A stretch of DNA of 55,224 bases from a virus. Taxonomy: Duplodnaviria > Heunggongvirae > Uroviricota > Caudoviricetes. The notes under the pieces are model-generated. The model did no database searches, was not told where the DNA came from, and was given only the letters and a program-made list of their open reading frames with translations. A program made the translations under genes and the position numbers. The stretch lies in the IMG/VR virus record IMGVR_UViG_3300046522_000750; one strand, written 5' to 3'. Positions 4,965 through 24,466 of the stretch are shown here, piece after piece (position 1 is the first letter of the stretch; every line of letters starts with the position of its first letter).

Positions 4965-5936
4965 CTACAACCATCCAGACTTCTTAAAGCTCGCCCACAG
5001 GCCTACGCATCCGGTCGCAATGAAACCCAGGGCCGCAAAATAGCCGTAGTGCCAACTCAGCTCCGGCATGTTCTGAAAGTTCATGCCGTAGATCCATGCG
5101 ACCGCCGTAGGGAATGCAACTATCGCCGCCCACGACGCCAATTTGCGCTGCACCACACTTTGCCGTGACGCCTCCAGCAACACGCCGACTTCGATAGTTT
5201 GGCTGGCAATTTCGGACAACGATGTCAGGTCTTCAAGCTGACGGGTAACGTGAATCTGCACGTCACGAAAGTACGGGCGCATGGTTTTGTCGATGAAGGG
5301 AAAGTCCAGGTTTTGCAGCTCCTCGCTGATCTCCGTCATCGGCGCCACGTATCGACGCAGACGCAACACATCCCTGCGCAAGCAATGCAGTCTCTGGATA
5401 TCCTGCTCATTCAGCTCAGTGGCCAGGATGCTGCGTTCCAGCTCATCGATCTCGGCATGGATCGCCTCGCCCACCGGCTGGTAACTTTCAATCACGAAGT
5501 TCAGCAACGCATAGAGGACAAAATCCTCACCGTGCTCAAGCAGCAACGGACGCGCCTCGCAGCGCTGGCGCACATGGGCATAGGAGGCTGAGTGGCCGTT
5601 ACGGGCAGTGATGATGTAACCGTTACCGGCAAAGATATTCGTCTCGATGAACTCAAGCGTGCCTTCATGGCGAATCGGCGAGTAAGTCACGATAAACAGG
5701 GCATCGCCGAACGTTTCAAGCTTTGGTCGGCTGTGAACTTCCAAGGCATCCTGAATCGCCAGTTCGTGCAGGTTGAACTGGCTTTGCAGATCGGCTAACT
5801 CTTGGTTGTCGGGCTCCTCAAGACCAATCCATACAAAGTGGCCGGGCTTTGCGGCCCAGGCAGCGCCTTCGTCGAGCGTGATATTGGTGACTTTCTTACC
5901 GGCGTTGTAGACCGCAGCAGCAACAACTCGACCCAT
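4965..5936 (-). CDS. corA: CorA-family magnesium/cobalt transporter
   Basis: YGMNFQNMPEL (GMN signature), two C-terminal TM helices, N-terminal WIGL...FNLHELAI...SRPKLE typical of Pseudomonas CorA. Confidence 0.95.
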   Translation of the reverse strand: MGRVVAAAVYNAGKKVTNITLDEGAAWAAKPGHFVWIGLEEPDNQELADLQSQFNLHELAIQDALEVHSRPKLETFGDALFIVTYSPIRHEGTLEFIETNIFAGNGYIITARNGHSASYAHVRQRCEARPLLLEHGEDFVLYALLNFVIESYQPVGEAIHAEIDELERSILATELNEQDIQRLHCLRRDVLRLRRYVAPMTEISEELQNLDFPFIDKTMRPYFRDVQIHVTRQLEDLTSLSEIASQTIEVGVLLEASRQSVVQRKLASWAAIVAFPTAVAWIYGMNFQNMPELSWHYGYFAALGFIATGCVGLWASFKKSGWL

Positions 5937-9113: not shown

Positions 9114-9764
9114 CTACCGGCAGAAGTTCCAGATACGATTGGCCACTTCCTTGATGTCCAGGCTGCCGTCGACATGCGCGACCAGCGGGCGTGAAGCCAG
9201 TGGAGCCTCCATGTAATAGGCCCGAATGGCGCTAATCTGCTCGGCATAAATTCCCAGCCGCTTCAGCACAACCTCGGGGGCATCATCAGGTCGCTGTATA
9301 AGGGGCTCACCAGAGAGATCGTCGACCCCTTCCACCGCAGGTGGGCTATAGCGGATATGGTAGGTGCGCCCGGAGGCTGGGTGAACGCGCCGGCCACTCA
9401 TGCGCTCAACAATCACCTGCGGATCGACCGCAATCTCCACGACCGTGTCGATCACCACGCCCTGCTCGCGCAGCATCACTGCTTGTGCCACGGTGCGCGG
9501 AAAGCCGTCGAGGAGAAAGCCCTTGGCGCAATCGGGTTGGGCCAGACGCTCCACCAGCAGCTGCATGACAATCTCATCGCCAATCAGCTGACCGGTCGGC
9601 ATCAGCGCTTCAACCTGCAAGCCGATGAGCGTGCGGTTGGCCACGGCCTCACGCAGCATGTCGCCCGTGGAAATCTTTGGGATGCCCTTGCTCGCGCACA
9701 AGAGTTCAGCCTGAGTGCCCTTTCCGGCGCCCGGTGCGCCCAACAAGACGATGCGGTTCTTCAT
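9114..9764 (-). CDS. adk: adenylate kinase
   Basis: P-loop GAPGAGKGTQA, ISTGDMLR, GFLLDGFPRT, LID GRRVHPASGRTYH. Confidence 0.97.
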   Translation of the reverse strand: MKNRIVLLGAPGAGKGTQAELLCASKGIPKISTGDMLREAVANRTLIGLQVEALMPTGQLIGDEIVMQLLVERLAQPDCAKGFLLDGFPRTVAQAVMLREQGVVIDTVVEIAVDPQVIVERMSGRRVHPASGRTYHIRYSPPAVEGVDDLSGEPLIQRPDDAPEVVLKRLGIYAEQISAIRAYYMEAPLASRPLVAHVDGSLDIKEVANRIWNFCR

Positions 9765-19986: not shown

Positions 19987-20535
19987 CTAGGGATTGGTTA
20001 TATCGGCAACCTTTTCACTTTCTAGCCTTCTCTCAAGGTTGGTGCAATAGACATAACCATTGCCAACACACAGCACCACAAGTGATGTCAGGAAAAATAA
20101 TGCGGCGAAGTCTGTTTTGTTTGGCGATTGACCCATTTGCATAATTAATAAAATCGTTACTACAAAGATTACTGCATTTGTTTTCAAAACGAATCCGGTG
20201 TGAACTCCACCTTGAATCATTTTCACATTAATACAGGTAAGCCAGAGGCTGATGCAGGTAACAACAGCCACTACTGAAGGATATTCGACAATATAGTTCA
20301 ACAGCGCCGTAATATTTACAAGTTGATCTAACCAAGCACCAGCATAATCTACAGCGGATACTATAGCCTTAACGAAATAAGCCAAACCACCAACAATCAT
20401 CAAAACAATATCTGATGATTCTTTTGGAAAGGAAAAGGCGATCAACGATACAACCAATGCGACAGCCACCGGAATACCACACTTGATCGCAGTTGTTCGA
20501 ATATCTATATTTGCCTTGACTGCAGTATTCATCAT
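19987..20535 (-). CDS. array membrane protein
   Basis: IKCGIP; LWLTCINVKMIQGGV; TAATG coupling to upstream gene. Confidence 0.85.
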   Translation of the reverse strand: MMNTAVKANIDIRTTAIKCGIPVAVALVVSLIAFSFPKESSDIVLMIVGGLAYFVKAIVSAVDYAGAWLDQLVNITALLNYIVEYPSVVAVVTCISLWLTCINVKMIQGGVHTGFVLKTNAVIFVVTILLIMQMGQSPNKTDFAALFFLTSLVVLCVGNGYVYCTNLERRLESEKVADITNP

Positions 20536-21077
20536 TAAATCCACTTTGACTTAAGGTTCAGTTTATGTTCAGCGTACGTTGAAAAAATGACAAGTAATAT
20601 TCCATAAAACTCAGTCCAGATCAGCCATTCAATGCTTTGGACAGCACCTGGAAATAACAACAGTGTCGCAGTAGCAAGATTGAAGAAAAATAATACTCTC
20701 CAGCAAGATATAAGGTACATGCACGAGTTTCTCAATCTTGTTGCACAAGCCTCGCTACCTTCTTTTGTGCTCAGATGGCGTACTGCGCAAATTTGCCAAA
20801 TAACCAGACCGGCTACCAAAATACTGACAGCAATAGCCACACTCCCGAACCACCCCGCCGAATACCCCTGAACAAACACCTGAGCAGCAGATCCAGCAAT
20901 GGCGATCAGCACGACATCAATCGATGCGACAACCAACTCAATCAGCGGCTTGAACAAATTGTAGGCTTGTTCCTGGAACAGGAAGCAAAACAGAAAGAGC
21001 CCCGTTACCAGTGCAACGGGAATGCCGCACTTGAGTGCCGCTTTGCAGCCTTCGTTGGGAACGGTGCTATCAGACAT
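20535..21077 (-). CDS. array membrane protein
   Basis: LKCGIP; IWQICAVRHLSTKEG. Confidence 0.85.
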   Translation of the reverse strand: MSDSTVPNEGCKAALKCGIPVALVTGLFLFCFLFQEQAYNLFKPLIELVVASIDVVLIAIAGSAAQVFVQGYSAGWFGSVAIAVSILVAGLVIWQICAVRHLSTKEGSEACATRLRNSCMYLISCWRVLFFFNLATATLLLFPGAVQSIEWLIWTEFYGILLVIFSTYAEHKLNLKSKWI

Positions 21078-21118
21078 TTTCAGTTTCTCCACTCTTGGAT
21101 ATTTTGATTTTACTGGTC

Positions 21119-21158
21119 TTGTATTCCCGGATTATCCGCTTTTGTCAATTTGTGTCAA
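21119..21158 (-). promoter_or_regulatory. 40-bp array promoter/operator copy
   Basis: exact 40/40 match to 19713-19752. Confidence 0.85.
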
Positions 21159-21202
21159 TTTATAGAAACAAAATCGAACGCCAACCTGGTCATCAGATAA
21201 AA

Positions 21203-21233
21203 ACAAAAAACCCATCGATGATGGGTCTTTGTT
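21203..21233 (-). terminator. intrinsic terminator
   Basis: CCCATC-gat-GATGGG with T-tract on minus strand. Confidence 0.6.
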
Positions 21234-21262
21234 GGCTGTCTATGCCGAAAGTACTGAGCTTT

Positions 21263-21769
21263 TTATTCAGCCGATAGCAGTTTTTTGATTTTTTCATCTT
21301 CCTGCATTTCAATGACTCTCATGAACATCAACACCACCATGTAGAAAAGGCCCACTAAAAAAAAGCCTTCTGGAGCGTTTGACGCTGGCACGTACATCAT
21401 CACCGCTGCGATAGAGAGGAACGTAAACCAGTTTCTTACGTTGTCTAGCCGGGCATACAGATTACTCTGAAGGTGTTTCTTCTTCATCGAAGCGCAGATG
21501 CACGTGAGCCATAGATAAGCCGCGATAAACACGCCAGGAACCACAATTGGCAACCATGACCAATAGGCATAGACCGAATAAAAAACTTTTACAGCCAGGG
21601 TCAGGTTTTCGAAAGTCCACTTCAATGCAACGAGAGTGGCTGCAACTACCTCGGTGGAGAAAACAACCAAAAAGCTCACAAGCAGCATCGCCGCCACAAT
21701 ACATGAACCACATTTAATGGCATTGGATACGAGGTCGTTTTTGAAATTTTCCGCTGAATTGGTGCTCAT
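21263..21769 (-). CDS. array membrane protein
   Basis: IKCGSC; LWLTCICASMKKKHL. Confidence 0.85.
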   Translation of the reverse strand: MSTNSAENFKNDLVSNAIKCGSCIVAAMLLVSFLVVFSTEVVAATLVALKWTFENLTLAVKVFYSVYAYWSWLPIVVPGVFIAAYLWLTCICASMKKKHLQSNLYARLDNVRNWFTFLSIAAVMMYVPASNAPEGFFLVGLFYMVVLMFMRVIEMQEDEKIKKLLSAE

Positions 21770-21821
21770 ATCATCATCCTTATATTTTGAATTATCGCCA
21801 GCGGCTGGACTACCCATCGGC

Positions 21822-21861
21822 GTGTATTCGCGGATTATGAGCTTTTGTCAAAAACTGTCAA
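21822..21861 (-). promoter_or_regulatory. 40-bp array promoter/operator copy
   Basis: minus strand TTGACAgtttTTGACAaaagctCATAATccgCGAATACAC. Confidence 0.8.
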
Positions 21862-21885
21862 TTAAGAGTTATTAACGCACTCAAT

Positions 21886-22047
21886 TCAGGCCGCCAGGCC
21901 CATAAAACAAAACCCTTCCGAGGAAGGGTTTTTGGTGTGCTTCTCTTTTCGAGAGTAGCCAGTTTTGTCGGTGACGACGCGCTGTCGGTACAGCGGGATC
22001 ATGACCATCGATTTAGCTTTGCTTTTCTTGCCAGGGCCTTTTTTCAT
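21886..22047 (-). CDS. arfA: alternative ribosome-rescue factor A-like protein (53 aa), absent from ORF track
   Basis: MKKGPGKKSKAKSMVMIPLYRQRVVTDKTGYSRKEKHTKNPSSEGFCFMGLAA*; PL(F/Y)RQRV...SRK.KH core resembles ArfA; GGAG RBS 6 nt upstream. Confidence 0.75.
   Translation of the reverse strand: MKKGPGKKSKAKSMVMIPLYRQRVVTDKTGYSRKEKHTKNPSSEGFCFMGLAA
21909..21932 (-). terminator. terminator/RNase III-type hairpin inside the arfA-like ORF
   Basis: AAAACCCTTCC-tc-GGAAGGGTTTT followed by GTTTT on minus strand, upstream of the stop codon. Confidence 0.8.
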
Positions 22048-22104
22048 GATGAGCTCCAGTGAATGAGCCTACATGATAAGGCATTTTGACATCATTTGCA
22101 ATAT

Positions 22105-23700
22105 CTACAGGCCCAACGCGTCCGAAAGCATCGCTCCTTTCATCAGATTGATCTCCCTGGGGCTGAAGAAGGATTCAACCCCCAGGTCTTTGACAATCTG
22201 CAGGTGATGCTCAACCGCCATGATCGCCCGCAATGTTTTCCTGAATTCACCACGATTGAAACGCTCTGAGAGCCCAAGGGGCCACGCCGTTGGCCGATCT
22301 TTGTTCACATGGCTCAAGTAAATGAACGAGGCTTCGCTCAGGGTGGCCGGCGCATACGGACTCAGTGCTTTGGTGTAGTTGTTCAGGCGTACAATGATCG
22401 ACGTAAGAGGCTCAGTCGACTCCAGCACCTCACGTGCGGCTTTGAGATCTGCTGCATACGCAGGCACCACAGAAGATTGAGCTGCACCCTCCTCCAGAGC
22501 CAATACCAGTTGCCAAAGCACCCCGCGAAAAGGATTTAGGTTGTGCAACTCGGCTTGGCTGTAAAAGCTCTCGACACCCAGGATCTGAATGATGTCGGTG
22601 TGAGGCTTGAACGGTGAAGAGCTACGATGGCGCTTACGAAATGCCAGTCGATCAAGCACCGTATCTAGTTTCAGTCCCTTGAAGACCTCCGGCTCGCCAG
22701 ACACCGTGCCAAGTACCATGTAGCCCTCAAGGTCAATGTTGGTTTCGGCGCAAGGCATCAGCGCTTTCACCATCGTTGAACAGCCCTTGGCGTGCCGGCC
22801 ACGAGCCGGCTGTTTTTCCAATAGCTTTCGCAGCTTGCTCAGCGTTCTGTTCTTGAGTGTATGGACTTGCTCCTCACTGATTTTGTCCTCAAATCGCAAG
22901 CGAACAATCATCTCCTCGAGCATTTCATGCATGTTCAGAAAGTGACCAAGATTGGCGTGATCAAGATCGCCCACCAGCGATTTGCAGAACTGGTGACCAT
23001 CAATGCCCTTTTCCAGCAACGCAGGTACGCCACCATGGCGCTCAACCATCGCAAGCTTGCCCTCGTCTATCCGGTAATGATGGAACTCGCGACCCATTTT
23101 GGGCAGTTGATTCACCAGGCTTACGCCGCGTTTGGCCTCTTCAATCAGCTTGAGCTCTGCTTCAAGTTCAGCCAGGCGCTCACCGCCTTCGAATGCGATG
23201 CAGCCGATTTTGTCGCGAATACTGTGCGTGGTAATCCAGTGATCTGGGGCTGGCTTTTGCGTGGACAGGTAAAACACCGCCGCTAACAGGTTTTGGTTCT
23301 TAACTTCACTCCACGCCACGTACAGCCAAACCCGGTCATGCCCCTTGAGGTTCGCGTTGACCCAACCAAAGGTTTGCTCCAGGAGGTGCAGAAGATCCAG
23401 GGTGCCAATGTCCTCAGCCTGAAGCTGTAAAATCTTGCTCGACATCAGTTTTTCGTAAAGCTCATGAATGTTCGACGCGGGGCCACTGCCATGCGAATGA
23501 ACACTCAAGGCGATGGCACGGCTCATGGCGGTCAGCCTGTACCTGTCTTCTACATCCAGCACTTCAAAACACTTGTCGATCACTGTCTTGTAGGGCTGGA
23601 AGGCAGCCTGTGGATCATCGAAGCCGGAAGTAGCACCTACGCGCACGAGACAGTTCCTCTGTAAAGCGATTCTGGATTGACTATTTGTCAATTTATACAT
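22105..23700 (-). CDS. large hypothetical protein
   Basis: 531-aa ORF ending LSDALGL; true start probably a little downstream of 23700. Confidence 0.8.
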   Translation of the reverse strand: MYKLTNSQSRIALQRNCLVRVGATSGFDDPQAAFQPYKTVIDKCFEVLDVEDRYRLTAMSRAIALSVHSHGSGPASNIHELYEKLMSSKILQLQAEDIGTLDLLHLLEQTFGWVNANLKGHDRVWLYVAWSEVKNQNLLAAVFYLSTQKPAPDHWITTHSIRDKIGCIAFEGGERLAELEAELKLIEEAKRGVSLVNQLPKMGREFHHYRIDEGKLAMVERHGGVPALLEKGIDGHQFCKSLVGDLDHANLGHFLNMHEMLEEMIVRLRFEDKISEEQVHTLKNRTLSKLRKLLEKQPARGRHAKGCSTMVKALMPCAETNIDLEGYMVLGTVSGEPEVFKGLKLDTVLDRLAFRKRHRSSSPFKPHTDIIQILGVESFYSQAELHNLNPFRGVLWQLVLALEEGAAQSSVVPAYAADLKAAREVLESTEPLTSIIVRLNNYTKALSPYAPATLSEASFIYLSHVNKDRPTAWPLGLSERFNRGEFRKTLRAIMAVEHHLQIVKDLGVESFFSPREINLMKGAMLSDALGL

Positions 23701-23776
23701 AATATTTTGAATAATGTCTATGATTACCAGCGCGATTGGATTGCCCGTCGCTCATCCGGTACAGAACGGAGTCTTT

Positions 23777-24466
23777 ATGTCCACCACCAGCCCTGATTTG
23801 TCTGTCGATACCAAACAAACCCTCATTGAAGTCGAGCAGGATGAGCGTGCGATTTTCGAGAAGGTTTGCCGGGATGGCGATACCCGTGGTGTTGAGTTTG
23901 ATCCGGTGCATAACCGCTACGTCGGCGCCGATCACAAAATTCAATGGAACATCGACAAGGCCAAGCATATCAACGCAGCTTGGTACGGATGGTTGATGTC
24001 TATTGCCAATCGCCAGGACAAAGCCAAGATTAAACAGCTGCAAAAGCAAGTCGCTGAACTGACGCATGAGAAGGCTGTGCTGCAAGAGCAGCTCCCTGAT
24101 CAGCCACGCACCGATAATCCGGCGCACACCGATCACGCCAAGGCCCTGCTGCTCAACCCGAGCAAAGAACCCGCCATTGCCGGTTACGGCGCCTTCTGGA
24201 AAGAGCGAGGGCATGATTGCTCGCAACTCGCCGGTGGGCACCCAGGCGAGCTGGCATTCGGCATCAGCTACATAAGATCGCTGGGCTTTGAGTGCCAGGA
24301 GCATGCCTTGATCCGTTTGGCAGACTACCGCATCGACATGAGCGCCCTGCGTGCCCACGTGACCAAGGTTGAAGGCGTTCTGCTGGATGTCTACAACCAG
24401 AACGAGCTCAGCCTTGGCGATGATGAACGCATCCTGGCTGTCCTCGACCACAAGATCAAAACCTAA
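23777..24466 (+). CDS. phage-like hypothetical protein
   Basis: MSTTSPDL after GGAG; AAWYGW motif and coiled coil. Confidence 0.7.
   Translation: MSTTSPDLSVDTKQTLIEVEQDERAIFEKVCRDGDTRGVEFDPVHNRYVGADHKIQWNIDKAKHINAAWYGWLMSIANRQDKAKIKQLQKQVAELTHEKAVLQEQLPDQPRTDNPAHTDHAKALLLNPSKEPAIAGYGAFWKERGHDCSQLAGGHPGELAFGISYIRSLGFECQEHALIRLADYRIDMSALRAHVTKVEGVLLDVYNQNELSLGDDERILAVLDHKIKT

Follow-up and report, generated by a model that had tools for sequence, protein, structure and literature searches.

A putative megaplasmid-borne ArfA gene with a predicted in-frame terminator and a conserved Ala-Ala tail

The window, that is, the whole 55,224-nt stretch of DNA analyzed here, carries on its minus strand at 21886–22047 a 53-aa open reading frame (MKKGPGKKSKAKSMVMIPLYRQRVVTDKTGYSRKEKHTKNPSSEGFCFMGLAA; TGA at 21886–21888, read-through tail included) that, judged by sequence comparison, represents a genuine gene for a diverged ArfA. 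It probably encodes a tmRNA-gated, RF2-dependent back-up ribosome-rescue factor with an Ala-Ala fail-safe, borne on a megaplasmid of the pMPPla107 type. In the proposed mechanism, transcription would start from the gene's own promoter, or read in from the upstream gene, and would stop at an in-frame terminator, yielding an mRNA without a stop codon at whose 3′ end ribosomes would stall. As long as trans-translation, by host or plasmid tmRNA–SmpB, has capacity to spare, the resulting peptide of about 47–49 residues would be tagged and degraded; once that capacity is saturated, or trans-translation is missing, the peptide would escape tagging and accumulate. Its basic segment (K28...RKEKH37) would then enter the mRNA tunnel that stands empty in a stalled ribosome, and host RF2, recruited by the hydrophobic patch (M14, L19, Y20), would release the nascent chain. 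Rare read-through of the terminator would give the full-length protein ending in GLAA, a likely ClpXP substrate, and expression would stay gated. What the sequences show directly is the homology, the layout of the gene, and the retention of both the terminator and the Ala-Ala end; from these we infer rescue activity, tmRNA gating, the role of the Ala-Ala end as a degron, and any benefit to the plasmid. Gene, regulation, and family all belong to a known kind, and JGI labels three close relatives "stalled ribosome alternative rescue factor ArfA".

By sequence, membership of the window protein in the ArfA family is a matter of remote homology only, both Pfam models concerned staying below their cut-offs. 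A match to Pfam ArfA (PF03889), which the earlier note had proposed as a check, does exist (19.2 bits, E 8.2e-4, window residues 3–37 aligned to model positions 6–43 of 44), but it does not reach the gathering cut-off of 25.5. Among Pfam models, DUF7230 (PF23876) gives the window protein its highest score, 20.6 bits at E 5e-4, likewise short of its gathering cut-off of 27; the relatives P0002, P0004, and P0005 have precomputed PF23876 matches, marked weak, and NCBIfam gave no match to the window protein. A word-index search returned 11 relatives, and an exhaustive profile search 101 cluster representatives at E ≤ 1e-3. When the profile of the 11 relatives (alignment A1) was compared with the PDB, all six matches were ArfA (best E 2.8e-4), with PLYrqRvvtdkt---sYSRKeKH matched to E. 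coli ArfA and the core of the window protein aligned to E. coli residues 24–53. The common core PL(F/Y)RQRV...Y.RK.KH thereby aligns directly with E. coli ArfA (YhdL), which has been solved on the ribosome with RF2 (5mdv, 5u4i, 5h5u). A profile–profile comparison by hhalign with 30 canonical Pseudomonas ArfAs gave a probability of 85% and E 6.3e-6. Together with the PDB matches, this bears out the central claim of the earlier note, an ArfA homologue on a mobile element.

Between the window protein and canonical ArfA, the family members form a continuous gradation. DUF7230 is matched by 71 and PF03889 by 38 of the 108 family sequences (best PF03889 E 8e-12), and intermediates pair an AKxxVMxPLYRQRV (AKxLVMTPLYRQRV) head with the canonical KGKGSY loop. 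DUF7230 itself has no function assigned to it in Pfam; here it is tied to ArfA by shared members, by the PDB profile search, and by the non-stop gene design, a link that is modestly new. Chromosomal Pseudomonas ArfA (PA3990 type, PF03889) is likewise small and basic and has the head ...KAKS(I/M)V.QPL(F/Y)R.R, but its copies score 33–42 bits against PF03889, whereas the window protein falls below the cut-off. The two also differ in that the window protein keeps RKEKH where the chromosomal protein has RREA, and in that it lacks three residues of the KGKGS loop, having KTG instead. The replacement of GKGS by KTG had been put forward as the possible mark of a variant subfamily, and the comparison with canonical ArfA confirms a loop three residues shorter. 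Lying between the RF2-binding and tunnel parts, the shorter loop could alter their geometry, its reach from the A site to the tunnel included. On the phage side, the RVxxDKTKYSRKxKH core (queries P0001 and P0028) is matched by three PHROGs of unknown function, phrog_2701, phrog_6310, and phrog_18092, with E between 2e-4 and 3e-6, and phages may commonly encode ArfA-like peptides. The 53-aa protein itself matched no phage record by tblastn, and a scan of viral_contigs returned no relative.

The conserved core, residues 11–37 (AKSMVMIPLYRQRVVTDKTGYSRKEKH; 21937–22017, minus strand), consists of a putative hydrophobic RF2-contact patch followed by a putative basic mRNA-tunnel segment. In E. coli ArfA, Leu19, Leu24, and Phe25 contact Trp319 of RF2 (PMC5378476). 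M14, L19, and Y20 of the window protein align with these three residues, and all lie in invariant columns of alignment A1. The basic segment DKTGYSRKEKHTK retains K28, R33, K34, K36, H37, and K39, and is three residues shorter than E. coli residues 31–48. Since E. coli ArfA is still active when cut at Asn47 (PMC5378476), which aligns with K39, and the predicted 3′ end falls about 8–10 residues beyond the Asn47 equivalent, the truncated window product would keep everything needed. A predicted complex with E. coli RF2 scored 0.40, against 0.01 for the best of three controls; at least 69% of contacts agreed between runs, and partner pLDDT was at least 49. Of 80 solved complexes, 58 clear the mark used for such predictions, as do 2 of 110 mismatched pairs; passes at scores of 0.60 or under came from only 7 of the 80 solved complexes and from both of those mismatched pairs. 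The prediction weakly supports RF2 binding, and its pass may reflect the model's memory of solved ArfA–RF2 complexes.

An altered job is one alternative: an ArfA-derived peptide might still bind stalled ribosomes through its basic segment but, owing to the shortened loop and a changed head, fail to activate RF2, and act as a modulator that, for example, competes with host ArfA or steers stalled ribosomes to plasmid tmRNA–SmpB. In its favor are the linker three residues shorter and the score below the threshold of the ArfA model, and the weak RF2 complex prediction points the same way, as does the presence of arfA in the host and of a separate tmRNA–SmpB, with distinct tags, on the megaplasmids. 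We nevertheless consider it unlikely, because the RF2-contact patch (M14, L19, Y20) is conserved in kind and occupies invariant columns, the family grades without a break into canonical ArfA, and the canonical regulatory design is retained, as befits a back-up factor. A counterpoint to the preferred reading of a back-up rescue factor does stand: canonical chromosomal arfA is found in 80 of the 81 sampled genomes of the host genus, one copy each, which leaves no clear reason for a second one.

The element that would confer gating is a stem-loop inside the frame, at 21909–21932 on the minus strand, detected both by a terminator scan and by folding. It covers codons 39–47, and its arms, 21909–21919 and 21922–21932 (AAAACCCTTCC / GGAAGGGTTTT), form a stem of 10–11 bp; the conserved peptide PSSEGF is nothing other than the translation of the two arms. 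Immediately after the hairpin, the coding strand reads GTTTTATGG (21900–21908), giving the U-tract GUUUUAUGG in which, from the way intrinsic terminators work, the transcript would be expected to end. The stem end lies 20 nt (6–7 codons) ahead of the TGA, and a transcript ending at 21900–21908 would encode 47–49 residues. The single-sequence statistics are moderate only. The scan that calls this hairpin found five sites in a 1.6-kb region, against 1.7 ± 1.6 in shuffled versions, and the 42-nt hairpin stretch folds at −16 kcal/mol with a z of −2.6, 2 of 200 shuffles folding as well. What lifts the hairpin beyond chance is that it recurs, both in canonical arfA and in all of the close relatives examined. 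Rfam, searched over the whole window, returned nothing at gathering score; the only weak match, to rnk_pseudo over the hairpin (27.5 bits, cut-off 55), was taken as chance.

All eight distinct close sequences have a GC-rich stem followed by a T-rich run in frame, and the 11-bp-arm hairpin with its U-tract ahead of the stop, as first noticed in the window, is therefore both present and conserved. The stem sequences differ, with CCCTTCC/GGAAGGG, CCCTC/GAGGG, GCCCTC/GAGGGC, and CCCTCC/GGAGGG among the relatives, and the stem end stays 19–21 nt 5′ of the stop wherever the scan measured it (the window, L009, L013, and L015). Covariation is modest: RNAalifold found two of nine aligned pairs changed on both sides, in an alignment blurred by register shifts. 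In a further relative, L021 (P0010, about 2590–2680), such a terminator is absent, and a perfect 24-bp hairpin spans the stop codon, resembling the RNase III-type substrate of E. coli arfA. In-frame terminators also occur in distant family members from Alphaproteobacteria, Endozoicomonas, and Fibrobacteraceae. The means of removing the stop codon thus vary within one protein clade, from a terminator to a long hairpin to none, which offers a natural comparison set for tmRNA gating. Metagenome contigs from the deep sea and other marine settings (L029–L081) encode a large clade of 50- to 70-aa proteins (...DLSDGRYHQRVVKDKTKYSRKEKHGQTDRHYEHSDSSETST) with an ArfA-like core, whose genes have ordinary stop codons and no in-frame terminator.

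The same layout is found in chromosomal arfA of the host genus. Among 31 canonical loci, each from a different host-genus genome (L016 and L083–L112), 27 have an in-frame hairpin GAAGCCTYCCAG...CTGGGAGGCTTC and then a T-rich run, with the stem ending 16 nt before the stop in most loci (about 16–20), and 24 of the 30 distinct proteins end in (L/M/I/V/Q)AA. The window gene copies this standard design, Ala-Ala tail included, differing in its cleaner U-tract and its plasmid location. The built-in non-stop switch that the earlier note ascribed to the element accordingly stands at the sequence level, but it is not special to the element, being the design of chromosomal Pseudomonas arfA. Further afield, E. 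coli ArfA is made from non-stop mRNA and held down by tmRNA tagging, its full-length form being unstable (PMC8012679). There the stop codon is lost mainly through RNase III cleavage of a long hairpin, whereas the window gene has an intrinsic terminator, and the full-length E. coli protein has a hydrophobic, aggregation-prone tail in place of the ssrA-like Ala-Ala tail of the window protein. The mRNAs of arfA and brfA lose their stop codons in these ways, and tmRNA tagging limits the factor (PMC8012679). BrfA of Bacillus subtilis, which is RF2-dependent and whose non-stop mRNA arises from a rho-independent terminator before the stop (PMC8012679; PMC6881298), shares its RF2 dependence and terminator-before-stop design with what is proposed for the window gene, but it is chromosomal and of a different lineage; no search gave a significant sequence match to it.

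If the terminator is read through, the last four codons (21889–21900, minus strand) encode GLAA, which resembles the end of the ssrA tag; the LAA ending of the read-through product had been pointed out beforehand and is indeed there. The tmRNA tags of these bacteria, whether encoded on a chromosome or on a plasmid, end in LAA, and it is the C-terminal LAA of the ssrA tag that ClpX recognizes. By analogy, the read-through product would naturally be expected to be degraded like the tagged product. The Ala-Ala end is found in seven of the eight distinct close relatives with varying codons (GCG GCC, GCG GCT, GCA GCC, and GCA GCG), and retention of the residues despite this variation argues that selection sees the read-through protein. 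Across the family, 9 of 101 representatives end in AA, against about 0.5–1 expected; the corresponding P of 1e-6 to 1e-9 is indicative only, the representatives being related to one another. In the reviews consulted, PMC8012679 among them, a hydrophobic tail is all that is described. The occurrence of (L/M/I/V)AA behind an in-frame hairpin in most Pseudomonas ArfAs, chromosomal and plasmid, points to a further level of control that is simple and open to testing, and the wide spread of this tail is modestly new.

Gating can also be denied altogether, by supposing that the gene specifies a functional ArfA-like factor made constitutively and that the hairpin is the terminator of the upstream operon, overlapping the last codons. 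The scan of the region found no terminator between the upstream 531-aa gene and the ArfA-like frame, and the hairpin would therefore end the transcript of that gene as well. Moreover, the tail codons conserve their amino acids, which implies that translation runs to the stop codon at least on occasion, and on the plasmids pPLMAXa and pPL1 the homologues close with an ordinary stop codon, which a terminator follows about 40 nt later. Against constitutive expression, all members of the clade to which the window gene belongs have the terminator ahead of the stop, as does canonical Pseudomonas arfA, a transcript ended at the hairpin necessarily lacks the stop codon, GUUUUAU is a good U-tract, and an Ala-Ala end fits removal of a leak product better than it fits a functional C-terminus. 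We regard this ungated alternative as improbable. The non-stop design is, all the same, not shared by the whole megaplasmid clade, and gating, or the function itself, may be dispensable, given the ordinary stops of the pPLMAXa and pPL1 genes and the pMPPla107 copy, which has lost the YSRKxKH motif.

The gene has candidate expression signals of its own. A GGAG ribosome-binding site (22054–22057, minus strand, as read from the sequence) lies 6 nt 5′ of the ATG and is kept in all close relatives, in agreement with the frame and site as originally described. In the 57-nt gap between the upstream gene and the ArfA-like frame sits a σ70-like candidate promoter, TTGCAA-17-TATCAT (22073–22101, minus strand; 9 of 12 matches), and TTGCAA/TTGAAA-17-TAnnnT also precedes the homologues in L011, L013, L015, and L113–L116. 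A three-block promoter design around GCTCA was rejected by eye for its misfitting spacing. The next gene past the stop, which encodes a 184-aa membrane protein (21263–21817), has a strong promoter-like site of its own, TTGACA-16-CATAAT (21834–21861, minus strand; 11 of 12 matches), which suggests that the ArfA-like frame is a separate transcription unit. Within the frame, the 19 invariant columns among the 11 close relatives in A1 all fall in residues 8–37, and comparison with the 91%-identical copy in L009 over codons 1–37 shows seven synonymous and no non-synonymous differences, a pattern indicating that purifying selection acts on the core. The notion that there is no protein-coding gene here, merely an intergenic terminator region with a chance frame, can draw on the shortness of the frame and its scores under the family cut-offs, but is very improbable: the exhaustive search yields 101 cluster representatives at E ≤ 1e-3, the close relatives have 19 invariant residues in common, change in the core relative to L009 is exclusively synonymous, and ribosome-binding site and promoter are conserved.

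The longest contig encoding the protein measures 1,131,278 bp, and the replicon is a megaplasmid of roughly 1.1 Mb of the pMPPla107 type. The best plasmid matches of the window's adenylate kinase (9114–9764, minus strand) are those of pPL1 (64%) and pMPPla107 (60%). Most of the forty other window frames scanned with Pfam fall in no family, and housekeeping-type genes are among them; a CorA magnesium transporter is encoded at 4965–5936 on the minus strand. Megablast of 20000–24000 against plasmids gave no match, and tblastn of the 53-aa protein against plasmids found one plasmid record. With the family profile, one ArfA-like gene each was detected on pMPPla107, pBASL58, pPL1, and pPLMAXa, the pBASL58 protein ending in AQAA. 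Pseudomonas sp. PLMAX has canonical arfA on its chromosome and the variant on its plasmid. A 1.11-Mb metagenomic contig, Ga0495597_0000001 (L126), carries a 91%-identical ArfA-like gene in the same gene neighborhood as the window.

Searches for tmRNA, SmpB, and release factors covered the related megaplasmids and this contig. Every sequenced relative of the replicon has, beside its ArfA-like gene, a tmRNA and an SmpB of its own. On pPLMAXa (L117, 438432–439364), pMPPla107 (L119), and pBASL58 (L120), smpB lies adjacent to a full-length tmRNA gene, the plasmid tags being ANDNTFEGARLAA, ANNDNFDAPVALAA, and ANDNAFEGARLAA, all of which differ from the PLMAX chromosomal tag ANDENYGQEFALAA; the metagenomic contig likewise has its own smpB and a tmRNA with the tag ANDSQYALAA. 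No gene of the RF-1/RF-2 family was found on pPLMAXa, the one related megaplasmid searched for it, so that RF2 would have to come from the host. The earlier note's description of a complete back-up rescue module is to that extent overstated, since ArfA needs host RF2. What this family of 1-Mb conjugative megaplasmids does carry is all of the transferable parts of ribosome rescue, namely tmRNA, SmpB, and ArfA, and such a set, beside a host that has all three, is modestly new. A 2014 survey recorded smpB on only one plasmid (PMC4131195), and the debate over horizontal transfer of translation genes has been raised for pMPPla107 (PMC6482414); the plasmid set bears on that question and on how such plasmids limit the cost to their hosts. 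A bolder proposal, which we put forward tentatively and would not hold to be the likelier outcome, is that the megaplasmids have a private rescue set of distinctly tagged tmRNA, SmpB, and diverged ArfA, in which the plasmid ArfA senses joint host and plasmid trans-translation capacity and protects the host from the translational load of, or the mRNA damage caused by, a 1-Mb plasmid, and that the Ala-Ala behind the terminator is a general, previously undescribed ClpXP degron, a second safety catch of Pseudomonas-type arfA. Buffering against mRNA-cleaving toxins by the ArfA-like gene, which the earlier note had linked to orphan antitoxins nearby, is possible but gained no support from the analysis. 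Elsewhere in the window, two adjacent paralogous genes on the plus strand (1348–2103 and 2247–2999) encode 250-aa proteins with an Arc/HicB-like ribbon–helix–helix and an HTH_3/HTH_31 domain, with no toxin gene evident beside the pair.

The immediate upstream neighbor (22105–23700, minus strand) encodes a 531-aa protein ending in ...MLSDALGL, and in five relatives (L009, L013, L015, L113, and L116) the ArfA-like gene is immediately preceded by a gene for a homologue of 512–540 aa. The protein has no match in Pfam, PHROG, or the Atlas, nor by tblastn against plasmids; its AlphaFold model (pLDDT 77) is an all-α solenoid for which Foldseek returned only generic helical repeats at TM <0.27. A functional link of this neighbor to ribosome rescue was considered and set aside, there being no ground for it beyond partial synteny. 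The window's ArfA-like copy lacks the structured leader that pBASL58 (L124) and pMPPla107 (L125) share about 90 nt 5′ of the ArfA-like start. That leader comprises a hairpin CGGGT...ACCCG, then CGTACAAC, and then a terminator-like GGGGCC...GGCCC with a T-run just before the ribosome-binding site, an arrangement that could constitute an attenuator.
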